NCBI GenBank assembly: GCA_963768855.1
Contig: CAVYJM010000008.1
Span: 1 to 64,000 of the forward strand
DNA from: an uncultured Thermoplasmata archaeon
GTDB lineage: Archaea > Thermoplasmatota > Thermoplasmata > RBG-16-68-12
Length of the DNA stretch: 64,000 bases
Direction: 5' to 3'
Each line of letters opens with the position of its first letter. Positions within the stretch are counted from its first letter, which is position 1. A program made the translations under genes and the position numbers. This document shows, piece after piece, positions 23,783 through 64,000 of this stretch. The notes beneath the pieces were generated by a model. The model had not been told where the DNA came from. It saw only the letters and a program-made list of their open reading frames with translations, and made no database searches.

Positions 23783-23856
23783 GGGCCTGTAGTCTAGCTT
23801 GGACAGGACAGAGGCCTCCGGAGCCTTTAACCGGGGTTCGAATCCCCGCAGGCCCG
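23783..23856 (+). tRNA. trnR: tRNA-Arg(CCG), intronless, CCA not encoded
   Basis: Acceptor GGGCCTG/CAGGCCC, anticodon arm GAGGC-CTCCGGA-GCCTT, T arm CGGGG-TTCGAAT-CCCCG; promoter GAAAGCCTTAAAG at 23746-23758. Confidence 0.95.
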
Positions 23857-50454: not shown

Positions 50455-51066
50455 ATGGCGGTCTGCCCGAACTGCGGCCACAGCAAGTTCCTGCTCGCAC
50501 CGCTGAGCTGCGACGGATGCCGCAAAGTCGGCTGCGAGCGCTGCCTGGGCGTCTACGCTCACACCTACCCCGTTGCTGGCCGTCCCCCGATCGCGCACCG
50601 CATCTGCTCTTGGGAGTGCTTCGACCGCCTCGCCTCCTACAACATCGGCCGCGGGCTGACGATGGCCTCCTCGGGCGGCGCGTGGTACATCGGCAGCTAT
50701 CAGCTCGTCCCGCGGGCGGCGCAGCGCGCGGTGCGCATCCGGGCCCAGAACTACGTCCTCGCGGAACGCCACGAGGACGCTGCGCGCCTCTACGAGAGCG
50801 TCGGCATGTGGAAGGAAGCGGGCGACACGCGGCGCCTCAAGGCCCGTCAGGTCGTCACCCAGATCCACGTGAACGTGAACGACCTCGTGAGCCAGCTGAG
50901 GGCCATGGGCGTGACCGCGACGTACACGTGCCCGGCATGTCACAGCCCCATCGAGATCACGCCCGACACGAAGCCCGACGCGCTCGCGAAGTGCGCGTAC
51001 TGCGGCGCGGTCATTCTGCCGACGGACCTGATCCAGGCCATCTCCAAGGTCGTCGGCTTGCGCTGA
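50455..51066 (+). CDS. Multi-zinc-finger protein, paralog of 478..1230
   Basis: MAVCPNCG..CDGC..CERC..CSWEC; AERHEDAARLYESVGMWKEAG; CPAC..CAYC. Confidence 0.9.
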   Translation: MAVCPNCGHSKFLLAPLSCDGCRKVGCERCLGVYAHTYPVAGRPPIAHRICSWECFDRLASYNIGRGLTMASSGGAWYIGSYQLVPRAAQRAVRIRAQNYVLAERHEDAARLYESVGMWKEAGDTRRLKARQVVTQIHVNVNDLVSQLRAMGVTATYTCPACHSPIEITPDTKPDALAKCAYCGAVILPTDLIQAISKVVGLR

Positions 51067-51091
51067 GGGCCGCAGCCCACCGGCCCGGGCT

Positions 51092-52060
51092 CTACCACAG
51101 GGAGAACGCGGGGCGCTCCCCGTTGATGACCTGTCCCGTGGAGCCGTCGATCAGGATGAACATCTGCTTCCCCTTGTGGGCATACTGCATGAACCAGACG
51201 GGGATGTGCACGAGCTCGCCGTCGAAGCTCGTGGGATTCACGTTGATCGACTGCAGGTTGTCCACGCGGGAACGGGCCTGTTTCTCCGCGAGCTGGTGGG
51301 CGAAGGAGCCGGCCTGACCCTTGGCCTCCGCCTCGGAGACATCACCGCTCTGGACCTCGACGCCGCCGGTCTGGCGCTTGTCGAAGTTCGCCTTGCCCTG
51401 GAGCTGGAACTGGAATCCCTCCTTGGGCTGGTACTGGTTGTACCCGCGGACTGCGACGACCGGGATGTTCTGCTGGAACTGGATTCGGTCGTGAACGGGC
51501 ACCTGCTCCGTGATCGTTGTCCACTGTCCGTTCCGCTGGACCGACTTCGACACGTTCTTCGTCCCCGAGAACTCCGCCACGACGGACGTGGGCACGATCC
51601 AGTACGGGACATACTTCAGGACGACCTGGCCCAGCTCGGACCGTTCCGCCACCTTGCGCCGGAAGAGGCCCTTGTTCAGCCACTGTCCTCCGGCGTTCAT
51701 CGCGCTCTCGTTGTTGAGCTTGTTGTCGAGCATGTAATGCTTCTGGAACACCTCGGCCGTACCGCTGGCGGCCATGGCGGTTACCGCTCCGCAGTACTCG
51801 CATACCACGAGGGCGGTCCCTGCGGAGGGCTGCAACGAGCCGCCGCACGAGTTGCACTTCAGGCTCTGGGGCAGGGGCGGAGGCGCGGCGGGCGCCTGAA
51901 CCGGAGCGACGGATTGCGGGGCCGGGTAGCCCGGAACGCCGGGGGCCATGGGCACGCCCGGTGCGGGTGCCGGCGCCGGGACGACGCCTTGCCGCCCGCC
52001 ACACAGGTTGCAGAATACCGATCCGTCCGCGATCCGGCCGCCACACTGATTGCAGAACAT
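51092..52060 (-). CDS. Zinc-ribbon protein (double Zn ribbon, Pro-rich linker, Zn ribbon, YVPYW domain)
   Basis: CNQC..CNLC, PAPAPAP linker, CNSC..CEYC, YVPYW, HIPVW, IDGSTG. Confidence 0.88.
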   Translation of the reverse strand: MFCNQCGGRIADGSVFCNLCGGRQGVVPAPAPAPGVPMAPGVPGYPAPQSVAPVQAPAAPPPLPQSLKCNSCGGSLQPSAGTALVVCEYCGAVTAMAASGTAEVFQKHYMLDNKLNNESAMNAGGQWLNKGLFRRKVAERSELGQVVLKYVPYWIVPTSVVAEFSGTKNVSKSVQRNGQWTTITEQVPVHDRIQFQQNIPVVAVRGYNQYQPKEGFQFQLQGKANFDKRQTGGVEVQSGDVSEAEAKGQAGSFAHQLAEKQARSRVDNLQSINVNPTSFDGELVHIPVWFMQYAHKGKQMFILIDGSTGQVINGERPAFSLW

Positions 52061-52262
52061 GAATACGCCTCGAGTTCAAGCCTCGTCAGCCGCGGAGGTT
52101 GGCTTAATCATGTTCAGGTGGTTATCCGGGCCCGGATCGACGCTGCCGCCATGCTCCTCCTTTCCACGGGAGCGCCCAGGGCAGGATTCGTTCTTATGGA
52201 GGGTCCGGTACAGATTTCGGGCGTTTCGCGAAACCGTGACCGCGATTGGACTCTCGGCTCCC

Positions 52263-52602
52263 GTCCCAGCATGCCGGGTCTCGTAAGACCCGGCCCTTTC
52301 CCCTTTTCCCGGCGGTTCGCCGTCGTGCGGAGTTGCTCTATACCTGTCAAATCCGCGTCAATGGACGGGTAGTTGCCAGAACTCAAGACCGACGCCTACC
52401 GATGTCCTGTCCCCGCATGAGCCGGGAGACCCCCGGCTCCCTTTCCTCTCTTCCCCCAATGTTTCGCCTTCGCGCGGTTTCGCCCTACATCATCGGAACC
52501 CTGGTCAACGAACAAGGAAATGGCCGGCAGTGACTAGGTGCTGATGCCACGCTTGCCGATGTCCTGTCCTAGCATGAGCCAGGTGCGTCCCGGCTCCCTT
52601 TC
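52263..52602. repeat. Three-unit ~150-nt imperfect tandem array with conserved hairpins
   Basis: 52399..52445 vs 52556..52602 match at 40/47; 52316..52343 vs 52463..52490 match at 20/28. The core GTCCY(A/C)GCATG-hairpin-CCCTTTC starts at 52263, 52409 and 52566. Confidence 0.85.
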
Positions 52603-53466
52603 TCATGTTGTCATCCGTCAAAGCTCACTCAGCCTGGCGCGGCCCAGATCCGCAGGCACTTGGACCCAATCCATAGAAATCGAGGCTCGATCAACTGGAA
52701 TTTAGGATTCGCGGCTCGACGACTCGAGATCGCGTGCGGCGGCATTTTAGCGATGCGTGGGAAGCTTCGACGCCGGCCTGTTCCCTGCTGCCGGGTCACG
52801 AGACCCGCCCCCCTTCCCCATCTTCGTGAACCGGAACGCGCCTCTATGACACTCCTGCCCCTCGCAGGGTCACCGCCTAAGCTTCTTTGGAGCAGTCGTT
52901 CAGGAGGAGTCACACGCGGGGAGGGTCGAAATGCTGCCACGGTCAAAGGATACACCGGAATCGGCCTTCCCGGCAGAGGTGCGGACTCAGCCTGCGAGAC
53001 ATCCGGGCGAAAGAGCGGAGCGGGATTCCCGCCGCCTCCCAACGTACCCTCCGGGGGATGCGAAACCCCTTGGCATGAATCCCTCTGAGGGCCGGATGGG
53101 TGTTGAACCTGGCGGGTCGAATCGTCCTTCGCACTCATGGCCCGGAGGAAGTCGGGATCATCCTCTACAACGGGGTCGGGAGTTGTCGGCGGCTGAACCT
53201 CTAGAATCTCAGTAGGCGTGTGGTAGAAGCCCGAATCGACGACACTATCCGATAGCTGCCAGGGCGGGAGCGAGGCTCCCTGCTGAAACTGGCGCATTGC
53301 TGTACCAGACAGCATCAGTGACCCGCGGCGGGCATCGCTACCAAGACTACGAACCTTCCGACTATGGGCCCCAGTCCCCCATCCCCAGTTGTGCTGCAAA
53401 TGAAATCCCGGAAGCGCAACACGCCGGTCTGCCGACGTTCATCGCCCCATGATGCCAAGGCTTCCC

Positions 53467-54075
53467 TCAGGCTTTCTTGGGTGGCGAAGCTGGCTTTGGC
53501 ATGGTGGAACGTAGGGTCTTCCGCAGCTCGCGCATGCGCCCAAGAAATCGTTCAAACTCAGCTTCTGATGCGGTCATAAGGTACGTGTACTCGAGCAGTT
53601 CCTGCTTGACGAACGGGCCAACGTCCGTGAGCGCGTCAATTCGCTCCGCCCACGAGGAAGCGCTCTCGGGCCCTTTCATGGTCTGCATTATCTGCACCAC
53701 TCGCGTGACCACTGACGGCTCTATGCTTCCTCCGATTCCAAGCCTTCCCAAAGCGCCCAACGCTTCGCTGACCTGTTGCTTCAGGATTTTTCCGCCCCCG
53801 GATTTCCCATGGGTGAGGTTGAACACCTCGGCGGTCGCGCGGTAGTACGTCTCGATGAGGTGGTCCACCCGCTTCTCCCGCGCAATCTCTACCATGTCAA
53901 TGTCCTTCAGCTTGCGGATGTGGTGGTAGATGGCTTGAGGCGTCAGCTTCAACTGCTCCGCGATCTGGGCGACGGTCATCTCCTTCGCCCGGAGGAGATA
54001 GATGATTCGTCTGCGCGTTTCGTCCGCGAGGAGCTGGAAGGCCTCGGGGTCCGTAATCACCTTGAAAGACCGCAC
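53467..54075 (-). CDS. ArsR-family winged-helix transcriptional regulator
   Basis: FQLLADETRRRIIYLL..EMTV.QIA..L..T.QAIYHHI..L; the ORF is open to 54147. Confidence 0.9.
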   Translation of the reverse strand: MRSFKVITDPEAFQLLADETRRRIIYLLRAKEMTVAQIAEQLKLTPQAIYHHIRKLKDIDMVEIAREKRVDHLIETYYRATAEVFNLTHGKSGGGKILKQQVSEALGALGRLGIGGSIEPSVVTRVVQIMQTMKGPESASSWAERIDALTDVGPFVKQELLEYTYLMTASEAEFERFLGRMRELRKTLRSTMPKPASPPKKA

Positions 54076-54990
54076 GCTGCCCTCAAGTTGAATGATATGG
54101 TAGGCCGGCATAAAGCAGTTTCCCTCGCCAGCAGAGAGTCTGCCCAAGCCATTTGCCTCGAGACGCGTTCAACCTCGGTCAGGACAGAGCCTGGGCAGGA
54201 GCGCCGAGAAACATCAACCCGCCGATCCAGCACTGCGCTGCAAGTTAGAGGCGTAGCATCGAAAGCGTTGGCAACGGGATTCCGTCCGCCCAAATCTTCC
54301 GCATCTCGCGAGGCTCTCCCGGCTAGACTCCATCAGGAACTCGTGAGACTTCCTGATAAGACCAGTCGGACAGGTTTCCAGAGCACCGGTGAGCAACCGG
54401 AGAGCGGAAAGCACGGATCTTCTGCTCTTGGCCATAATCATGCTCGCCCTGGCACACTGCGAAACTTGGGCCACGGCTTCGAGTCGCATGGGAACCGTCG
54501 GAGTAGCGGGCGACTTGCAGGGGCACCTTAGAACTTTGGATGGGGCGGCCATTGCCTGCGAGGAGAGCTGTGGGCATAGCGCGGTGGTCGCAAACATAAG
54601 GCCGACGGCAATTCTCGCCCGCCTGTTCGGGGCCTCTGGCGAGCAGTAGGACTTCGTCTTCACTTCGGGTTCGGTCTGTACTGGCCTAATCGAACCGAAG
54701 ATCCCCAATATCCTGGATGAGGAGAGGTGCCGCGCTGGGGGGGCATTCCCCCCGCGACTACGGCACTGGCGGAGCCGAGGCGAGCCACGCTCGACCGCCT
54801 CAAGTGGTCCACAATTGTCCAACGGCGAATCGCCACAGGCGCATGACCGCTGAAGCTTCCCAACGGCAAGGGGTGTGCAAGCCATCGGCGGGGCCAGGGG
54901 CCATGAGGATTGTCCTCGGAGACAATCCCGCTCCAGACACCGGTCTCGTTGGAATTACGGAGCGCTTAAGTAGCCCCATGGAGGTTCTCA

Positions 54991-55779
54991 TTGGGGGGGC
55001 CGGACGTGACACACTGGGCCCGAATCGCGATAGAGCATAAGGATTGCTGGGGAGCCAACCTCGTTTCAGATCCCCGCGTCCGCGATGTGAGGTTTTGGTC
55101 GGGGTTGAAGGTTGACCCGCATCGGGTGCTGGGGAGTATGACTGTGCGGACGAATCGGAAGCTGGACCTGCTGGATTTCAATCCGTACAAGCTAGAGTAC
55201 TGCAGAGCGCGCGAAGCTCAGCTTGATGGCAAAACCTGGCAATACTACGTCGAGTTCATGTTGTATGAGAAGGCGGACGAGACAACCGCCGACATGCTCT
55301 TCCAGGCAGGTTGCCTCTTCCAGCCGCCTGCTATCGTCAGAGGCCGATACGAGCTCCAGACGATGCTTGCTCCGTCTTCAGACAACATTCGCCGTTTGTT
55401 CCGTCTGCTCAAGCGAAATAAGCGTGACTACAAGACGTTAGGCATTCGCGAGGTCGAACCGGGTCCTCGGATGCTGTTCACCGTTGAGGAGAGCGGAATC
55501 CTTACCCCCAAACAGCTCGACGCGATTCGGATAGCTTTCAAGCGAGGCTTCTATAGCTACCCTCGGAAGATCCGAATCTCGGACCTGGCAAAGGAAGCAG
55601 GATCTGCGCGCTCCACCTTCCAAGAACATCTCCGGCTTGCTGAAATAAGGCTGATCACCCACACGTTCCAAACGGAAGATCCATTTAGCGTCTCACCCGT
55701 GCCGGAGGAGCTCGATCGGAAACCTCGACCTAACTCTCGGCGTGCGCACACTTCCAGCAAGCCGACAGAATCGCACTGA
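54991..55779 (+). CDS. HTH-10 (bacterio-opsin activator type) transcriptional regulator
   Basis: LTPKQ...I..AF..GFY.YPRK..I.DLA...G..RST..EHLR.AE. Confidence 0.9.
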   Translation: MGGPDVTHWARIAIEHKDCWGANLVSDPRVRDVRFWSGLKVDPHRVLGSMTVRTNRKLDLLDFNPYKLEYCRAREAQLDGKTWQYYVEFMLYEKADETTADMLFQAGCLFQPPAIVRGRYELQTMLAPSSDNIRRLFRLLKRNKRDYKTLGIREVEPGPRMLFTVEESGILTPKQLDAIRIAFKRGFYSYPRKIRISDLAKEAGSARSTFQEHLRLAEIRLITHTFQTEDPFSVSPVPEELDRKPRPNSRRAHTSSKPTESH

Positions 55780-55878
55780 AGCACCCGGCCATGGCCGGCC
55801 ATAGCGGTAAGAAGGGAGGCAGGATTCGAGTGATGACTTCCATCATTGTGGACCGGATGGTTCAGGGGTGAGACTGGC

Positions 55879-56913
55879 TTGATCTCTAGCTTCCTGAGAT
55901 TCGCGATCAGGAGAATCATCCTAGTAATCCCTGTGTTGTTCGGAATCAGCGTAATCATTTTCATCCTGACAAGATCCATCGGGAATCCAGTCTCTGTCTA
56001 CATTACGAATCCGCAAGGACTGACCCCAGCGGCAATTCAAGAGTTAATCAAGATCCACCATCTTGATCAACCCCTCTACATTCAGTATTTCTACTGGCTC
56101 AGCGACGCATTCCATGGCGATCTCGGATACTCTGTGTCGGCAGGACTGCCGGTAACCGCTGCAATCCTGGCTTTCTTTCCAAACACAATCGAGCTGACGT
56201 CGGTATCACTTGTACTCGCGGTACTCTTTGGAATCGCCTCGGGGAAGTACTCAGCGGTCCACCGGAATCGCCCCGGCGACCATGCACTTCGTGTCGTTGC
56301 GCTGTACGGTGTGTCAACACCGGTTTTCTGGCTTGGCATCCTCTTGCTATATTTCTTCTTCGGCACGCTCGGAATTGCCGCTTTCTCGCCGGGCCCATAC
56401 ACTCAATCCCTGTTTATCAACCATGATATCAAACTCTACACCCGCTTTCTCATCATCGATGCAATCCTCAATGGTGATCCTGCGTTCCTCCTTGACGTGC
56501 TCACTCACCTGCTTCTGCCCGCGCTGGCTCTTTCGTATGCCTCAATGGCCATAATCATGCGAATGATGCGCTCCTCGATGCTGGAAGTGCTCGGCCAGCA
56601 GTATGTTCAGGTCGCCCGGGCCAAAGGGTTGACGTCGAAACAGGTGATCCAACGTCATGTGATGCGCAACGCCATGCTCCCCACCACCACAGTCATCGGG
56701 TTATCCGCAGGGTTTCTGCTAGGTGGTTCGGTTCTTGTTGAGACCGTCTTCAGTTACCCCGGGCTTGGCTTCTGGGCAGCAGCGGCGATCCTTCGACTCG
56801 ATCACGCAGCAGTCGTGGGTCTGGCCCTGTTGGCAGGTATCGTGTACGTTACGATTAACCTCGTGGTGGACATCGCCTACGCCTACTTGGATCCGCGCGT
56901 TTCTCTCGGTTGA
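55879..56913 (+). CDS. oppB: Peptide ABC permease
   Basis: RRIILVIPVLFG, QYV..ARAKGL, RHVMRNA, DIAYAYLDPR. Confidence 0.95.
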   Translation: MISSFLRFAIRRIILVIPVLFGISVIIFILTRSIGNPVSVYITNPQGLTPAAIQELIKIHHLDQPLYIQYFYWLSDAFHGDLGYSVSAGLPVTAAILAFFPNTIELTSVSLVLAVLFGIASGKYSAVHRNRPGDHALRVVALYGVSTPVFWLGILLLYFFFGTLGIAAFSPGPYTQSLFINHDIKLYTRFLIIDAILNGDPAFLLDVLTHLLLPALALSYASMAIIMRMMRSSMLEVLGQQYVQVARAKGLTSKQVIQRHVMRNAMLPTTTVIGLSAGFLLGGSVLVETVFSYPGLGFWAAAAILRLDHAAVVGLALLAGIVYVTINLVVDIAYAYLDPRVSLG

Positions 56914-56919
56914 TTGCCC

Positions 56920-57846
56920 ATGAACCAACGCCTCGCCTCATATGCTAAAGCCCTCCGAGCACGAGCGAAAGGAATGCAGGACATGCTGAAGCTGCTACGC
57001 AAGAATCCGCTTGCAATGATTGGGATAACTATCGCCGTCGTGTTGCTGGCAGTCGCAATCCTCGCGCCCATCCTGGCACCACCCGGGCCTGGAGACCCAT
57101 ACCAAAGGCCTCGAACATGGCTGCAGCCTCAGCCACCAGGAACGCCCGGGCACATCCTCGGAACAGGCGTAAACGGTGCCGACATCTACTATGGGCTGGT
57201 CTGGGGGACCCGCGTTTCTCTGCAAATCTCCTTGTACGTCGTCGGGGCGGCCTTGCTCATTGGCCTCTTGCTGGGGGGCATCGCTGGCTACTTTGGTCGG
57301 TGGATTGACGAGGCCATCATGCGCACTACGGACCTCTTCATCGCGATTCCGGGGTTAATTCTCGCCATGGCGGTCGCGAGTGCCCTGGGCAGGAGCATTC
57401 AGAATATCATGATTGCGTTGATAGTCGTCTGGTGGCCAGCCTATGTCCGAATCTTCAGGAGTCAAGTCCTGGTGACGAAGCAAAGCCAGTATATCGAAGC
57501 TGCAAGATGCTCGGGGGCTTCGTCGTGGCGGATTATTCTCCGCCACATCATTCCGAATTCGGTCGCGCCACTGATGGTACAGGCCTCACTTGACCTTGGT
57601 GTAGCTATCTTGGTGGCCGCCGGGCTTAGCTTTATCGGCTTCGGTGCGTCGCCAGGCTACTCGGAGTGGGGACTCATGATCGCAGAGGGGAGGGACTACA
57701 TCTCGCAAGGATTCTGGTGGATGGTAGTCTTCCCTGGTCTGGCGATTAGCATCTTCGTGCTCGGATTCAACTTGCTCGGCGACGGACTTCGGGATATACT
57801 TGACCCGAAGTTGAGGAGTCTGATGTATGGGGAGATTGCTGCTTAA
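56920..57846 (+). CDS. oppC: Peptide ABC permease
   Basis: HILGTG.NG.DI, YIEAAR..GA, RHI.PN, LLGDGLRDILDP. Confidence 0.95.
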   Translation: MNQRLASYAKALRARAKGMQDMLKLLRKNPLAMIGITIAVVLLAVAILAPILAPPGPGDPYQRPRTWLQPQPPGTPGHILGTGVNGADIYYGLVWGTRVSLQISLYVVGAALLIGLLLGGIAGYFGRWIDEAIMRTTDLFIAIPGLILAMAVASALGRSIQNIMIALIVVWWPAYVRIFRSQVLVTKQSQYIEAARCSGASSWRIILRHIIPNSVAPLMVQASLDLGVAILVAAGLSFIGFGASPGYSEWGLMIAEGRDYISQGFWWMVVFPGLAISIFVLGFNLLGDGLRDILDPKLRSLMYGEIAA

Positions 57847-59140
57847 GGTGGAGAATCTCACTTTGACTTTCCCAACGATTCGTGGCAAGGCCAGAGTGCT
57901 GGAGGACGTCGCCTTCGAGATGCATGAAGGCGAAACCCTCGGTCTCGTCGGCGAGACTGGTTGTGGCAAGAGCGTGACAGCCAAGACCATACTGGGTTTA
58001 GTGGACCGACCCCCGGCAGAACTGCACAGGGGACGCGTCTGGTACTACTCCCGAGCCGACGACACGGCTCAGCTGCTCCGAACCAACCTGCTCGCGCTTC
58101 CTGAGCCGGAGCTGGTCAAGATCCGAGGGAACGTGATTTCGATGGTCTTTCAAGATCCTATGACCTCTCTCGACCCGGTTCTGAAAGTCGCAGACCAGAT
58201 TGCTGAGTCCTTCATGATACACAGGAGGGGGGACCTGCTTCAAGCGGTCATGAATCGGGCAGCAAACACAATCAAGTTGCTAGACGCGAAGGACGCCCCT
58301 CAGCGCAATTGGAATGAAGATGGATGGGAGTGTTCTCGTTGCAGGAAGCCCGTCCGTCGAGAAGCCAGCTTCTGTAGGGAGTGCAACTCCTACTTCCGCA
58401 ATCGGCACTCATCATGGTTGTTCAGACTCAGACTCAGTTACCTGCGGGGAATCTGCCGCAGGACTCTCGCTCGAGACAACTGGGCTGCTCGGTTGTTGCA
58501 GCGCATGCCTTCTGTGGACTACCTCGGTCGGCTGGAGGATGAAGCAAGAGAGCGCAGCATTGAACTGATTCATAGCGTTCGGATGCCGGACGCCGACAAA
58601 GTGGCAGATTCCTACCCCTTCGAGTTGAGTGGGGGAATGCAGCAACGTGTGGCGATAGCCATGGCTCTTGCCTGCCGTCCCTCACTTCTCATCGCAGATG
58701 AGCCAACGACTGCACTCGACGTGACCATCCAGGCGCAAATACTGAAGCTAATCTCTGATTTGAAGCAAGCGCTCGGCATGTCCGTCCTCCTGATAACCCA
58801 CAATCTCGGCATCGTTGCTGAGCAATGTGATCGCGTTGCGGTAATGTACGCCGGCTCGATAGCCGAAATCGCAGACGTGCAGTCAATATTCAAGAGCCCA
58901 CTACACCCATACACCAAGGGCCTCATTCAATCCATACCGATTCCCGGTCAACGTAAGGAAGAACTAGTCGTCATCCCGGGAAGGCTGCCGGACCCTGTCA
59001 ACCCGCCGAGCGGGTGCAGGTTCCGCACCCGCTGCGCCCATGCCTTTGAAAAGTGTGCAAGTGAGGTCCCAAGACTGACTCAGCTGGAGCCGGGGCACTA
59101 CATCGCTTGCCATCTGTATGAATCAGGGGAGCCAACATGA
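57827..59140 (+). CDS. oppD: Peptide ABC ATP-binding protein with ~100-aa zinc-ribbon insertion
   Basis: [29 protein letters not shown]; the insert contains CSRC-x10-CREC. Confidence 0.93.
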
Positions 59141-60180
59141 GTCGGGACGTACTGGCGACTCGACGACTAGTCAAGCACTTCATGAGGCGACGAGGCTTTG
59201 GTAAAGGGGCCGTCCGGAGCATACATGCGGTCGATGATGTCTCTCTCGAGATTGAGTCGGGCTCCACCTTGGGACTTGTTGGTGAAAGTGGGAGTGGGAA
59301 GACTACGGTAGGCAGGCTGCTGCTTCATCTAGTGGAGCCGACTTCTGGGGAGATTTACTTCGACATTCCTGCAGACGAGTTGGCTGAGATTGACCGGTCA
59401 TCAACAACCCGGGGATCAGAAACCCGTCTTCGGGAATTGCAGACGAAGTACGGGGTGGGAAAATCGTCAGCGGCTCTAAAACGATTGAGACGCAAGGCCC
59501 AGATGGTTTTCCAGGACCCATTCTCGTCCTTGGATCCGCGAATGCTTGTCCGTGACATTGTGGCCGAGCCCCTGGTGGCACTGAACCTGGCACGTGGCTC
59601 CGAGCTGGAGGACAGGGTGGGCGGAGTCCTGGACAAGGTGGGGCTTTCGCAAGATGATCTCTTCCGCTTCCCCCACGAATTCAGCGGTGGACAGAGGCAG
59701 CGAATCGGGCTTGCGAGAGCACTCGTCCCGGATCCGACGTTCATTGTGCTCGACGAGCCGACCAGCGCCCTGGACGTATCCGTGCAAGCCCAAATCCTCA
59801 ACCTTCTTCGTCGGCTGCAGAAATCCGCTGGGCTCTCTTACTTGTTCATCTCACATGACTTGAGCGTTGTCGACCACATGGCCGATCGCGTTGCTGTGAT
59901 GTACGCTGGTGAAATCGTAGAGATTGCTGACAAGGAGCCATTCTTCGCCAAACCCCTCCATCCTTACAGTGAACTCCTACTAGCCGCCGTGCCACGGCCG
60001 GACCCAGAACGAAAAACCGCCCGAGCCGTGGCGTCGGGTGATGTACCGAGCGCCGAAAATCCGCCGCCCGGCTGCCGATTTCATCCGCGTTGTCCGTACG
60101 CAGTTGAAATCTGTCGCCGCTTGAAGCCGCCCCTCGAGGACAAGGGAAATCGACACCTGGTGGCTTGTCACCTCCGTTGA
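59137..60180 (+). CDS. oppF: Peptide ABC ATP-binding protein
   Basis: GESGSGKT, FSGGQRQR, LDEPTSALD; ~30-aa insert after Walker A. Confidence 0.95.
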   Translation: MSRDVLATRRLVKHFMRRRGFGKGAVRSIHAVDDVSLEIESGSTLGLVGESGSGKTTVGRLLLHLVEPTSGEIYFDIPADELAEIDRSSTTRGSETRLRELQTKYGVGKSSAALKRLRRKAQMVFQDPFSSLDPRMLVRDIVAEPLVALNLARGSELEDRVGGVLDKVGLSQDDLFRFPHEFSGGQRQRIGLARALVPDPTFIVLDEPTSALDVSVQAQILNLLRRLQKSAGLSYLFISHDLSVVDHMADRVAVMYAGEIVEIADKEPFFAKPLHPYSELLLAAVPRPDPERKTARAVASGDVPSAENPPPGCRFHPRCPYAVEICRRLKPPLEDKGNRHLVACHLR

Positions 60181-60200
60181 TCAGAGAGCCTTCGGTCCGT

Positions 60201-62636
60201 TCACCCCTTGGATAGGCTGTAGAACAGCGGCGCCGCACGGAGCGGCTGGTAGTAGTAACCATGGACCCACGGTGCAGCTGCGTCTAGAGCCAGCGTGTAG
60301 TCAACCCATACATACCAAGCCAGCTGGTAGAGCCGGTATTGGATGTCCCCATAGAGTTTCGATTGGACGGCTGGGTTCGTCGCGTTGAGTGCTTGGTCGA
60401 GCAACGGGTCAAGGGTGTTTGGTACACCCATGAACTTCGCGATGAACGCCTGGGAATACGACTCCTCTCCCAACCACGTGTACGCGTCAGCGTATTCCGG
60501 GTACATGGTCGTCGACATCACGGCATAACCCCAGCTCGTCCACTTGCTGAAGAAGGCGGAAAGAGCCAGCTCCTGGACATTGATGTGGATTCCGGGGTTA
60601 ATCGATTCAAGGTTGTCCTTCAGGTTGAGCAAGATCGACGTGTAAGCCGGAAAGCCCTGGAGATCGATCGCGGTCAGGGTGAATCCCTTATCCCACCACG
60701 AGGTGCCACCGGGCGCTATCGCTAGCTTGAGCTCTTGTTCGGCCTTCGCCAAATCGAGATCGTAGGTCGGGACAGATGCGTTGTAACCGAACACAATCGG
60801 AGGCAATGGTCCCACGGATTCAATGGCCTGACCTGCTCTCGCGCTCTGAATGACGGCCGTCCTATTGAGCGCGTAGTTGAACGCTAGCCTTACGTGGATG
60901 TCCTGGAAGAAGTTCGAGGGCACGTTATCGGTTGCGGGTACCTCCGCGAGGTTGATGTTCTGGTTCAGCTGTATCTTCGCGGTCTCTGAAAGGGACGGGT
61001 TCCCCGAGATCACTGTATATCCAGAGCTACGCAGGGCACGGACAGTCGCATATTGAGCGAGATCTTGCCGGAAATAGCTCGAATCGGCCGTTCCACCTTG
61101 GAGAGCTAGAAGACGTGTGTTGAATTCACTCGCGAGGGCTAGGACAACAGTCTTGATTGACGCGGGCTTTCGCCAGTAGCCATCGAATCGTACAAGTGTG
61201 ATGGATTGACCATGCTGCCACGCGCTGAATTGGTATGGGCCGGTCCCGCACATGTGGGAGTCCATGAACGGATCGTCCCGTCCCCCCCAGCCCGTTGCGT
61301 TCGCCCCGTTGTCGTAGGAGAGGTTGCTCCCCGGAACACGGGGATCCCATCCGCCGTTCCCAGTAACATATGCCTCGCTCAGGACGCCGAAGCCTCCGAA
61401 GGTGAGCAGTTTTAGGAAGGGCGCAAACGTCCGCGTCAGATGGAATACGACGGTGTATTGATCGACAACCTCAATGCTCTTATTGTTCATAACTTGCAGA
61501 AGCTCCCAAGCTGGCCCGTCGGGGAGGTTCATAGTTGTGGAGCGATCGAAACTGTACTTGACGTCGTTGGCGGTGAGCTGGCCACCGCATTGGAACTGCA
61601 CGCCCTGCCTGATGTGGAACGTGTAGTTCCTGCCGTCCGGGCTAATTCCACCATTGGCAATCGTGGGGACCCCTGTGGCCAAGACGGGGACGAGCGTGTT
61701 CACGTCATCGCGGTCATAGGTGATGAGATGTTCATAGACGTTGTCGAACAAGTTGTTGAAGGTCGGCCATGAATAATCATGTGCAGGGTCCAGATATGAG
61801 GGCTCGTTTGGCAGGTCCATGGTGTAGAGGTCTGGGTTCGGGACCGTTCCGGTGTATGCAGGTTCAGGCTCCAGAATCCTGATGGTGTTGATGGCGGTGT
61901 CCGTCAGCCCGGTTGTTGAGCTCGTCACTTTCAGTTTGACAGGATAGTTTCCCGGTTGGGTGAAATTCCATGTGGGGTTTGGCGATGAGGAATCGCTGGT
62001 CGAGCCCCCGGTGAAGCTCCAGCTGTACGACAAGGCCGGCACGTTGAGGCCCACTAGATTCCCGGCCACACTGGTCCACTGCCATGAGGACGTCGCGTCG
62101 AAGGACACAGTCGTCCCCACAGGCCGCGCGTTACCATCGGAGTAAATCACCGCAACCGGTGGGCTGGTAGTAGCCTGTGGCGGATCGACCGAGAGGATCT
62201 CGATGTACGACAGGTATACATCGTTGTTTGCCGTCGCCCCAAGGTTGTCCGTTAGGTGAAGTGTCACCACGTAATGGCCGTGGAGCGAGTAGCTGTGCGT
62301 CGTCGTGGCTCCAGTCCCCTGGGTACCATCTCCGAAGTCCCAGGCATATGTGGTGATACTTCCGTCGAGGTCCCAGGACCTCGTGGCGTCGAATTGTATC
62401 GGAGTATTCGGATAGGTGGTTGTCGCTGAGGCAGACGCGACGGTAATCGGAGGAGTCCCCGTTCCCGCCTTGGGCAGATTCAAGTAGTACCATGTGCCCG
62501 CGACCACCAGGACAAGGGCTATCACAACAACGGCCACCATGATCCAGCGTCGGCTGCCTTTCTTAGGCGGGGTAGGCTGGACCTCTTTCGCTTCTTCTGT
62601 CACTACCTCTGTACGCCCCGATGGAACCGGTTCCAT
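60201..62636 (-). CDS. oppA: Family 5 ABC substrate-binding protein with N-terminal TM anchor and two PKD domains
   Basis: TM WIMVAVVVIALVLVV; PKD motifs FDA..S.D.DG.I..YAWDFGDG and YSWSF.G..F..PG.Y.V.L.V; YLDPA, CGTGPY, VRLAFNYALNR. Confidence 0.92.
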   Translation of the reverse strand: MEPVPSGRTEVVTEEAKEVQPTPPKKGSRRWIMVAVVVIALVLVVAGTWYYLNLPKAGTGTPPITVASASATTTYPNTPIQFDATRSWDLDGSITTYAWDFGDGTQGTGATTTHSYSLHGHYVVTLHLTDNLGATANNDVYLSYIEILSVDPPQATTSPPVAVIYSDGNARPVGTTVSFDATSSWQWTSVAGNLVGLNVPALSYSWSFTGGSTSDSSSPNPTWNFTQPGNYPVKLKVTSSTTGLTDTAINTIRILEPEPAYTGTVPNPDLYTMDLPNEPSYLDPAHDYSWPTFNNLFDNVYEHLITYDRDDVNTLVPVLATGVPTIANGGISPDGRNYTFHIRQGVQFQCGGQLTANDVKYSFDRSTTMNLPDGPAWELLQVMNNKSIEVVDQYTVVFHLTRTFAPFLKLLTFGGFGVLSEAYVTGNGGWDPRVPGSNLSYDNGANATGWGGRDDPFMDSHMCGTGPYQFSAWQHGQSITLVRFDGYWRKPASIKTVVLALASEFNTRLLALQGGTADSSYFRQDLAQYATVRALRSSGYTVISGNPSLSETAKIQLNQNINLAEVPATDNVPSNFFQDIHVRLAFNYALNRTAVIQSARAGQAIESVGPLPPIVFGYNASVPTYDLDLAKAEQELKLAIAPGGTSWWDKGFTLTAIDLQGFPAYTSILLNLKDNLESINPGIHINVQELALSAFFSKWTSWGYAVMSTTMYPEYADAYTWLGEESYSQAFIAKFMGVPNTLDPLLDQALNATNPAVQSKLYGDIQYRLYQLAWYVWVDYTLALDAAAPWVHGYYYQPLRAAPLFYSLSKG

Positions 62637-62768
62637 AGTGGGTTCTCCTCCGAACCGCGCGGACCGCTTGCGTATAGCCGAGCTCCTGATAAGAACAATG
62701 AGGCGGCATTGGCCGGCTGGCATTCGCCGACCAAAACGTCTAGTCAACCTCAGAAGATCGGGTATGCG

Positions 62769-63992
62769 ATGGCCATCGGCCACGCCGCAGCTGGCTCGCC
62801 AATTTCTCGCAGAGCGAGTTCGCTCGCAGATTCTATGATCCGAGAAATGACCGAGCTTTGCGACCAATGTGGAGGCATCAATTTGGCAAGGGGGTACCCC
62901 GATGAACCCACTCCCACGGCGCTTCGGAGGGCAGCGACTGACGCCATTCGTGACGGTTCCAACCAGTACTCGCCATCGGGTGGCCTGCCGGAGCTCCAAG
63001 ATGCATTGGCCCAAAAGCTTGATTGTTTCAATCACGTAGACGTGGACCCACGGACGGGACTCGTCATCACCTGTGGCGCCACCGAGGCTCTTGCTTGCGC
63101 CATTCTTGCAGTCGTAGATCCGGCCAAAGAAGTAGTCGTGTTCGAACCGTCCTACGAGGATTTTGTCCCATGTGTTCTCATGGCGGGCGGGATTCCCGCC
63201 TGTATTCCACAGCGGGACAACTGGTGGTTGCCCGAGGAATCCATCAAAGAGGCAATTGGGCCCCGAACGAAAGCCATCATCATCAACTCACCACAAAATC
63301 CAAATGGCAAGGTGTACAGACTCGACGAATTACGACTCCTTGCCGACCTGTGCATTGACTATGATCTGACAGCGATTTCTGACGAAACCTATGAGTGCTT
63401 CACGTATGATGGAACCAGCCACCTGAGTCTAGGCTCGGTTGAGGAAATGGGTAGAAGAACCCTAACAATCGGCTCATTCTCCAAGACTTACTCTGCAACA
63501 GGATGGCGCGTCGGCTATGTGGCTGGCCCCGACGAAATCGTGAAGGGTGTTCGGAGGATACACGACTACCTCACTTTGGCGGCCCCGACCCCATTTCAGT
63601 GGGCCATTGCCTGCGCACTTCGCGATCAAGAGGCACGGTGTGAGCGCGTCGCGAGAACATACGCTGTCAAACGCCGAATACTCTGTGACGCACTTCGCGC
63701 ATGCGGATTCAAATTCCACAATCCTGAAGGGGCCTTCTATGTACTGGCCGATTTTTCAGACATCGCAGCTTGCGATGACAAGGACTTTGCGCTGAGACTC
63801 CTCGATTCCGTCGGAATCGCGACGGTGCCTGGGCGGTCTTTCTATTCGAATCCACGGCGAGGTCGCAATAAGGTCCGCTTCTCATTTTGTAAGAGCGGGG
63901 TTACGCTGCGCGAATGTGCCCGAAGACTCGGGGGTTTCCACTCAAATTCACGTCCCAGGGGGAAGAGCCTGAAGTATGGTCAGACCGGGTGA
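62769..63992 (+). CDS. PLP-dependent aminotransferase class I/II (methionine/kynurenine aminotransferase-like)
   Basis: SMIREMT..INLA.GYPD, NQY, GATEAL, NSPQNPNGKV, SDETYE, SFSKTYSATGWRVG, VRFSFCK. Confidence 0.92.
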   Translation: MAIGHAAAGSPISRRASSLADSMIREMTELCDQCGGINLARGYPDEPTPTALRRAATDAIRDGSNQYSPSGGLPELQDALAQKLDCFNHVDVDPRTGLVITCGATEALACAILAVVDPAKEVVVFEPSYEDFVPCVLMAGGIPACIPQRDNWWLPEESIKEAIGPRTKAIIINSPQNPNGKVYRLDELRLLADLCIDYDLTAISDETYECFTYDGTSHLSLGSVEEMGRRTLTIGSFSKTYSATGWRVGYVAGPDEIVKGVRRIHDYLTLAAPTPFQWAIACALRDQEARCERVARTYAVKRRILCDALRACGFKFHNPEGAFYVLADFSDIAACDDKDFALRLLDSVGIATVPGRSFYSNPRRGRNKVRFSFCKSGVTLRECARRLGGFHSNSRPRGKSLKYGQTG

Positions 63993-64000
63993 TACCGTGC

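Follow-up and report, generated by a model that had tools for sequence, protein, structure and literature searches.

A probable stack of attachment-site modules with tRNA-derived cores at the putative distal border of a composite island in an uncultured Thermoplasmata archaeon

Introduction

Contig CAVYJM010000008.1 from the assembly of an uncultured Thermoplasmata archaeon (GCA_963768855.1) contains three successive hairpin-bearing units in a 1.4-kb gap that is poor in open reading frames (ORFs), between a zinc-ribbon gene (51092-52060, minus strand) and the gene for an ArsR-type regulator (53467-54147, minus strand). This locus raises the question of what these units are and how they came to stand side by side. 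The first 64,000 nt of the contig, hereafter the window, had been described from the letters alone, and in this initial annotation the units were presented as a repeat-spacer array at the edge of an island, with two explanations: tandem small-RNA genes, or sites of serial recombination or of HUH-type transposition left by repeated insertions. Herein, we propose that the array is probably a stack of three end modules of the right attachment site (attR) type, together with one decayed module, derived from islands of tyrosine integrases that target tRNA genes, and that this stack forms the distal border of a composite island in the tRNA-Ser(CGA) gene.

Throughout the text, G000 denotes this genome and C-numbers denote its contigs, the window being the start of C8; other G-numbers denote related genomes.

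Results

The array gap was compared with all tRNAs of the genome to identify the cores. Unit 1 is preceded by an exact reverse-complemented copy of the tail of tRNA-Ser(CGA), and this copy, at 52172-52188, is the only exact one outside a gene in the genome. Unit 2 opens in the same manner on the tail of tRNA-Asn(GTT), and unit 3 on a decayed tail of the same tRNA (Table 1). Taken alone, the third core is not significant, with 27 matches at up to 3 mismatches versus 26 expected; the modules homologous to unit 3 in G053 and G009 carry cores that are exact over 19 nt in the former and differ by one mismatch in the latter. A second repeated block had been reported after units 1 and 2, and it is present at 52315 and 52462, where it corresponds to the reverse-complemented 3' end of tRNA-Asn. 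Therefore, the natural unit runs from the tRNA fragment to the hairpin tail and not from hairpin to hairpin. Each unit is laid out as a tRNA fragment, an arm of approximately 100 nt, a GTCCC-N-GCAYG motif and then the hairpin and its tail, with a total length of about 150 nt.

Many of the repeated features in the initial annotation were recovered. The motif GTCCYMGCATG lies on the plus strand at 52263, 52409 and 52566, giving 3 matches versus 0.20 expected, and three or more matches were obtained in none of 100 shuffles. It is followed in every case by a GC hairpin (52273-52294, 52419-52439 and 52576-52596) with a folding energy of -17 to -20 kcal/mol and a z-score of about -2, and a C/T-rich tail stands 3' of all three hairpins. 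Units 2 and 3 are 83% identical across 54 nt. The absence of a conserved ORF was also borne out, as no Pfam-bearing ORF covers the array. The statement that the array is not a CRISPR locus likewise agrees with the present data, in which the units are diverged paralogues and the presumed spacer is conserved in other genomes; cas genes were not searched for. Tandem Repeats Finder called no array at the units, because they are such diverged paralogues. A supposed fourth copy retains only a weak likeness to unit 1 at 52789-52825, where the fold is not better than that of shuffled sequences (z 0.08) and the covariance model R1, introduced below, gave no match at E up to 1.

The segment between units 1 and 2, which had been taken as unique, is the best conserved part of the array. 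In a DNA search of 41 related genomes, the region 52318-52431 showed 84-90% identity in four congeneric species (G012, G010, G015 and G021), and a second copy on C11 of the same genome showed 86%. The edges of this homology are distinct: it starts sharply at CGCCGTCGTGCGGA and ends just past the hairpin tail, and the flanks are unrelated on both sides.

A covariance model in relatives had been suggested as a check, and the model R1, which was built from five unit 2 orthologues, did reveal a family beyond this genome. With E values up to 1e-4 accepted, 16 of the 38 genomes of the genus held members; across the order, with E limited to 1e-5, members turned up in 16 of 79 genomes, representing 4 of 10 genera. 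Unit 1 matches the model at E 3.5e-6 and has a paralogue at C6:1069290-1069190, and unit 3 matches it at E 1e-11 and is alignable with G053:C7 and G009:C110. Among the 29 matches in the loci examined, 14 start within 3 nt of a reverse-complemented tRNA-Asn terminus (11-20 nt exact). The remainder comprise one with a Ser tail (17 nt), one with an Asp tail (G015, 16 nt exact), one in G018 that overlaps a real tRNA-Asn in the forward direction, and 12 with 8-13 nt only. Weak matches at loci L037, L025 and L022 were rejected as family members, being ordinary hairpins at gene ends by appearance.

The Asp-tailed match was noted separately. At G015:C212 (L012:1501-1665, minus strand), an arm of the unit 2 type carries the tail of tRNA-Asp instead of that of tRNA-Asn (an exact match over 16 nt and about 30 of 32 nt overall), and the switch point between the two lies inside the T-arm sequence; therefore, a change of integration specificity is possible.

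The border itself was located by comparison with relatives. The zinc-ribbon gene has its nearest orthologues in G053, G009 and G023 (84-89% amino acid identity), and DNA homology to these three genomes ends at window positions 52059-52129. An empty site is present in G023: there, the orthologous zinc-ribbon gene and tRNA-Ser(CGA) share a strand and stand about 110 nt apart. The gene side of this G023 locus corresponds to C8:52024-52129, and its tRNA side, with the genes beyond, corresponds to C12:105786-103819; therefore, the ancestral locus is split across two contigs of the present assembly. On C12, a 408-amino-acid ORF that matches the tyrosine integrase family PF00589 lies on the strand opposite to tRNA-Ser(CGA), with its stop 32 nt past the tRNA, and no integrase was found on C8.

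The composition changes at both junctions. The GC content of C12 is 0.67 before the tRNA and 0.55-0.61 from the tRNA to the contig end. On C8, it drops at 52 kb from about 0.67 on the left to 0.55-0.60 on the right, with values of 0.56-0.59 between 54 kb and the end of the contig. Low GC thus extends from both junctions to both contig ends, so that the insert would measure at least 17.2 + 20.5 = 37.6 kb. Among the cargo, TGT-like, QueC, Ogg, ThsB-TIR and 8xMP genes as well as transporters are encoded on C12, and hydantoinases, amidohydrolases and a peptide ABC transporter on C8.

The same kind of module closes other islands. The tRNA-Asn gene on C6 bears a 28-kb island, in which a 416-amino-acid integrase ORF adjoins the tRNA, with its stop about 45 nt from the tRNA end, and a 20-nt repeat of the tRNA-Asn tail (attR) marks the far end at C6:1069478-1069497. 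Just inside this repeat lies a module (C6:1069495-1069363) that reads away from it, followed by a unit-1-like module. The integrase of this island and that on C12 share 41% identity over 395 residues. The unit 2 orthologue of G010 lies 11.3 kb from tRNA-Asn on the same contig and adjoins a tail repeat, and that of G021, a remnant, lies 0.9 kb from tRNA-Asn and adjoins a 15-nt tail repeat. Asn-core modules were also observed in islands near tRNA-Glu(TTC), both in G000 (C11) and in G053.

Exact 16-nt copies of tRNA tails outside annotated tRNA genes occur at six places in the genome, of which four are true tail fragments (Asn on C6, Asn on C11, Ser on C8 and Val on C11). All four are followed by a YCCC..CAYG motif and a hairpin within about 100-150 nt downstream. 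The other two, which match the tails of tRNA-Gln and tRNA-Pro and lie on C2 and C6, were rejected as attachment sites, since they belong to whole tRNA genes missed by ARAGORN. These two genes, at G000:C2:5738 and G000:C6:930241, are apparently interrupted, probably by introns.

Moreover, the beginnings of the arms are repeated in inverted orientation on the other side of the core. For the Ser type, the 26 nt directly after tRNA-Ser on C12 (TCTTATGGAGGGCC...) share 20 of their positions with the opening of unit 1 (52192-52217), inverted about the core. For the Asn type, the opening of unit 2 recurs in inverted form as the sequence past tRNA-Asn in G010, G009 and G014 (CTCTATATC...TCAATGGAC...). 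The TATA-like strings that had been read as promoters are indeed present at 52193, 52338 and 52485, and the inverted matches place the boxes at 52193 and 52338 within repeats flanking the recombination core. These near-core inverted repeats are presumably binding sites of the integrase. Farther out, tandem pentamers were observed, namely TGTCC-TGTCC in unit 2, CTCCC-GTCCC in unit 1 and CGTCC-CGTCC in another subfamily, and these might serve as arm-type integrase sites.

The terminal hairpin has a constant orientation with respect to the integrase gene. The integrase lies opposite to the tRNA strand on C12, and the units lie opposite to the tRNA fragment, so that hairpin and integrase are co-directional; the same holds for C6. 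In alignment A3, which comprises 29 matches, 95% of the cells of the terminal helix are paired, 8 of its 9 pairs change on both sides, and wobble cells favour the integrase-co-directional strand (16 G.U versus 5 A.C). As A3 had been fitted to the model and consists of related sequences, these counts are tilted toward structure. Little covariation was seen in the body helices.

Contigs of four DNA metagenome runs were aligned at 90% likeness or more, and they break off at 52170/52171, where the Ser core starts, at the beginning (52318, two runs) and the end (52331) of the Asn core, and at 52414. These contigs match single modules and then continue into other sequence; one represents the C6 paralogue, and the others come from other populations. 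In other words, other populations combine these modules with different partners, with the joints at the core edges, and excision at the present locus is a separate matter. No joint across the island was found among the contigs of the four runs, and no piece spans the whole stretch, so that the positions of the loose ends alone were evaluated. A look-up of RNA runs gave none that contains 51000-55000.

Table 1. Features of the array and its surroundings, in window coordinates
Feature	Position	Strand	Details
Host zinc-ribbon gene	51092..52060	-	322-amino-acid ORF, weak DZR match; chromosomal side of the junction
Host flank B' between zinc-ribbon gene and tRNA-derived core	52061..52171		Alignable, as far as 52129, to the G023 segment that separates the zinc-ribbon gene from tRNA-Ser(CGA)
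attR core: last 17 nt of tRNA-Ser(CGA)	52172..52188	-	Exact versus the 3' terminus of G000:C12:105703-105787
Unit 1, integrase-distal arm, Ser type	52189..52310	+	Near-core inverted repeat 52192-52217; CTCCCGTCCCAGCATG 52258-52273; 9-bp hairpin 52273-52294; C/U-rich tail
Second core: last 14 nt of tRNA-Asn(GTT)	52318..52331	-	Exact versus positions 61-74 of C6:1041397-1041471
Unit 2, Asn-type arm	52332..52461	+	CTCTATACC 52336-52344; TCAATGGAC 52358-52366; TGTCCTGTCCCCGCATG 52403-52419; 8-bp hairpin 52419-52439; C/U-rich tail
Third core: decayed tRNA-Asn tail, 15/18 nt	52465..52482	-	Homologous modules in G053 and G009 begin at the same point
Unit 3, second Asn-type arm subfamily	52483..52617	+	Hairpin 52576-52596 with one A.C mismatch on the plus strand
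Possible degenerate fourth hairpin and tail	52789..52825	+	70% identity over 37 nt to unit 1
Low-GC island cargo	53467..64000		ArsR-type regulator, HTH_10 regulator, peptide ABC transporter; runs on to the C8 end at 72663

Discussion

How the array might have arisen can be judged from the tRNA-derived cores, the empty G023 site, the inverted arms and the occurrence of the same modules at the far ends of tRNA-Asn islands. Read on the plus strand, each unit would begin with the reverse-complemented 3' end of a tRNA as its recombination core (Ser(CGA) for unit 1, Asn(GTT) for unit 2 and a decayed Asn for unit 3). The integrase-distal arm of the attachment site of the free element (attP), here called the P arm, would come next, with its opening repeated in inverted form on the integrase side of the core and with the GTCC-type pentamers beyond. 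The GC hairpin and the C/U-rich tail would come last, directed into the island and co-directional with the integrase gene. The outermost unit would represent the working right end of the island of at least 37.6 kb in tRNA-Ser(CGA), whose other end, with the intact tRNA and the integrase, would be that on C12, and the two inner units would be the ends of tRNA-Asn-type elements accreted at the island border.

Elements that target a tRNA gene and keep an intact integrase gene beside it are called pNOB8-type. The present island resembles tRNA-targeting tyrosine-integrase elements of archaea and bacteria in having a tRNA 3' repeat at both ends, an integrase by the intact tRNA, cargo of foreign composition and an empty site in a relative. 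In contrast to the attL/attR (left and right attachment site) junctions of such elements, three gene-free ends stand here within 450 nt, with cores of two tRNAs, at the end remote from the tRNA. According to PMC9897764, tRNA fragments that arise in this way are common in archaeal genomes and ought to carry the label attR; single fragments only are covered there.

Cis-mobilizable elements (CIMEs), known from streptococcal ICEs (integrative and conjugative elements), are flanked by attachment sites and lack an integrase. Site-specific accretion of integrative elements has been described for streptococcal ICEs; related literature includes PMC5704250, PMC7563491 and PMC13651849. As in accretion and in CIMEs, internal attachment sites are found here where elements pile up at one target, and decay leaves pieces bounded by attachment sites without recombination genes. 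Unlike CIMEs, the present units have only the length of an arm, are gene-free, carry mixed tRNA cores and reside in an archaeal host. No description of stacked gene-free attachment-site arms, or of hairpin terminators in archaeal attachment-site arms, was found in a limited literature search. Systems of this kind are known, and two aspects appear undescribed within that limited search: a stack of gene-free ends whose cores come from two tRNAs, and a conserved arm closed by a hairpin.

In phage lambda, the tI terminator and the sib retroregulator lie beyond the P arm of attP, and integration parts this hairpin from int. For tI/sib, we refer to Schindler and Echols (1981), as cited in PMC6379469. 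The order of integrase gene, integrase-side arm, core, distal arm and co-directional hairpin is like that of lambda, and here too integration separates the hairpin from the integrase gene; this is a resemblance in layout only, for which no sequence homology is claimed, and termination or processing in the present case is hypothetical. The integrase genes on C12 and C6 read toward the core; therefore, a transcript from the excised circle would run through the integrase-side arm, then the core and lastly the distal arm before meeting the hairpin with its U tracts. In the circle, the hairpin and U tracts would end the integrase transcript about 155-170 nt past the stop codon, and integration would place the hairpin at the other end of the island, away from the integrase gene. 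By analogy with lambda, the hairpin might therefore be an RNA terminator of the integrase transcript. A stronger version of this idea is that the stack is a working docking platform of multiple specificity, in which Ser and Asn cores let integrases capture, move and reshuffle the island, and in which the hairpins are the archaeal counterpart of tI/sib, so that only the circle yields an integrase transcript with a proper 3' end. We consider this version unlikely.

Several observations weigh against the interpretation of the array as a border stack. The joint between C12 and C8 is inferred, because the contig ends share no overlap, and the link rests on synteny and composition only. No tRNA-Asn gene is present near the window, leaving the Asn-type ends within a tRNA-Ser island unexplained. 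In addition, the sequence to the left of the Asn core is the tail of unit 1 and not an integrase-side arm; therefore, simple tandem integration, alone or with deletion, gives the observed layout poorly. In G018, a complete module with arm, GTCC motif, hairpin and tail (G018:C57:15878-16086, L041) lies directly behind tRNA-Asn in forward orientation, which is not what an attR would predict, and no integrase was seen downstream. The integrase by tRNA-Asn in G010 is a remnant without a Pfam match, in which only the 3' end of the gene is recognizable from its DNA similarity to G009. The boxes TTCTTATGGAGGG and CTCTATACC resemble the tRNA promoters of this genome, for example GGAATCTTTATGGGGC, and would suit small-RNA genes too.

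The bias toward structure in alignment A3 belongs on the same side. With regard to termination, the hairpin followed by CCCTTYC is only weakly enriched in the genome, with 79 sites at stems of at least 7 bp versus 50-61 at offset controls. This combination was considered as a genome-wide terminator type after 295 sites had been found under loose rules, and it was dropped on the stricter count. Such sites show no bias between ORF ends on the same strand and on the opposite strand (24 versus 23). A simple consensus terminator scan called the hairpin of unit 2 only, and the hairpin of unit 3 is fully paired on the minus strand and thus pairs better there than on the plus strand, where an A.C mismatch is present.

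Despite these points, we still regard a stack of attR-type ends as the probable explanation. One hypothesis of the initial annotation, serial recombination sites at the island edge, is thereby upheld in substance, given the tRNA 3' fragments, the attR in tRNA-Ser(CGA) and the same modules closing tRNA-Asn islands, whereas its enzyme class is not. The alternatives fit the same data less well. If the units were tandem small-RNA genes, as the other hypothesis of the initial annotation holds, each would have its own TATA-like promoter and would end at the hairpin and U tract, yielding RNAs of 80-100 nt with a common 3' handle (GTCCC-N-GCAYG plus hairpin) and variable bodies, which would have an island-borne function of their own, added to the attachment function or as the main one. 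The promoter-like boxes, the conservation of the core-to-tail block as a discrete unit (84-90%) between unrelated flanks, the two-sided changes in the hairpin and the wobble pairs favouring the plus strand would all be expected of such genes. However, conservation begins exactly at the tRNA tail and not at a promoter, the boxes are part of inverted repeats on either side of the attachment core, and covariation in the body helices is slight. A discrete conserved arm of about 130-145 nt is equally expected from a functional attP arm. No Rfam family matches the units: only a tRNA-Arg at 23783 reaches its gathering score in the window, and nothing better than E 1.2 was obtained for 52000-53500. 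C/D-box, H/ACA and ribozyme motifs were not seen in the array on inspection by eye only. Thus, an origin as small-RNA genes seems rather improbable. The discrete units might also be read as self-standing mini-cassettes, that is, gene-free mobile modules of approximately 150 nt moved in trans by integrases to any copy of a tRNA tail. The cores at 52172, 52318 and 52465 bound the units with no cargo between them, other populations join modules to different partners exactly at the core edges, and adjacent Ser-type and Asn-type modules occur in reverse order at C6:1069495-1069190. These observations are offset by islands of 11 kb and 28 kb that bear integrase genes or remnants and have the same modules at their far ends, and by the lack of an integrase-side arm between units. 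Moreover, a circle of about 150 bp is a poor substrate for recombination. Mini-cassettes are accordingly a distinctly unlikely explanation.

Two further readings are far less probable. Hairpin sites of HUH/Y1 transposases, of the IS200/IS605 or REP/RAYT kind and generated by single-strand transposition, would be consistent with hairpins that have conserved flanking motifs and a single orientation. Nevertheless, a tRNA tail opens every unit, and the search for linked recombinases, which had been suggested as a check, led to tyrosine integrases (PF00589), while Pfam scans of 16 ORFs between 41.7 and 63 kb gave no match to a Y1 transposase family, no genome-wide search having been made; HUH transposition is thus very improbable here. 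A neutral local tandem duplication, unlinked to mobile elements, might account for the 83% identity that units 2 and 3 share over 54 nt. It is hardly compatible with cores from different tRNAs, with units that are paralogues having separate homologues in other genomes, or with the silence of Tandem Repeats Finder, and we consider it just as improbable.

A border stack of attR-type ends, if correct, would turn a repeat-spacer array into a readable history of an island, with a border defined to the single base at 52172-52188 and with two contigs of this genome joined. The integrase-distal attachment arm of these Thermoplasmata elements would be conserved as a hairpin-tipped module, about 130-145 nt in length. 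As R1 detects this module in 16 of the 79 genomes of the order (4 of its 10 genera), the model can be used to map island ends that are otherwise marked by a 14-20-nt tRNA repeat alone. Moreover, if the hairpin terminates the integrase transcript, a lambda-like control dependent on the state of the element would exist in archaea.

Additional observations

Several minor features were recorded in the course of the analysis. In the integrase-proximal part of the tRNA-Ser island, TGT-like, Ogg-like, QueC, ThsB-TIR and 8xMP genes are consecutive at G000:C12:109880-113360 (L093:6384-9863), and this group looks like a deazaguanine DNA-modification system together with a Thoeris-like defence cluster. 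In the integrase ORFs G000:C6:1041520-1042770 and G000:C12:105820-107046, the first approximately 45 aligned residues (KASEDGTLRLSLGE..RASTLEAEGNTHGT) are conserved far above the remainder (41% overall), which may reflect a conserved nucleotide element or a misplaced start codon. A second tRNA-Ser(CGA) with an adjoining integrase fragment is located at G000:C6:128078-128656.

Other inserts behind tRNA genes were also noted. At G000:C11:236481-257516, a 21-kb insert lies behind tRNA-Val(GAC), with a tail repeat and a hairpin-bearing arm and with no PF00589 match beside the tRNA. In G017:C109 (L052), a 755-nt insert behind tRNA-Asn holds one small ORF with a signal-like start and is closed by a tRNA-tail repeat; the end of this ORF overlaps a near-core arm like that of unit 2, and no hairpin module is present.

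A minus-strand peptide, with CAYG read as ATG/GTG, was considered for the arm and discarded: it comprises 11 amino acids in 4 of 5 orthologues, and its frame is broken by a 2-nt insertion in G021. Inside the island edge, two more long stretches, 52620-53466 and 54148-54990, are without convincing ORFs; the former contains a CTCTATGAC box at about 52845 and the possible fourth unit. Finally, a GC-rich element of approximately 45 nt (…ATAGCCCTTCCGGCCGCTCGGGGGCG..GACGGGGCGGGGG…) occurs at several intergenic sites, namely G000:C11:211500-218500 (L001), C4:1732 and C6:1069560, and is often paired with a palindrome-like motif, GGGTTCGAATCCATGTGACTTCGAAC.

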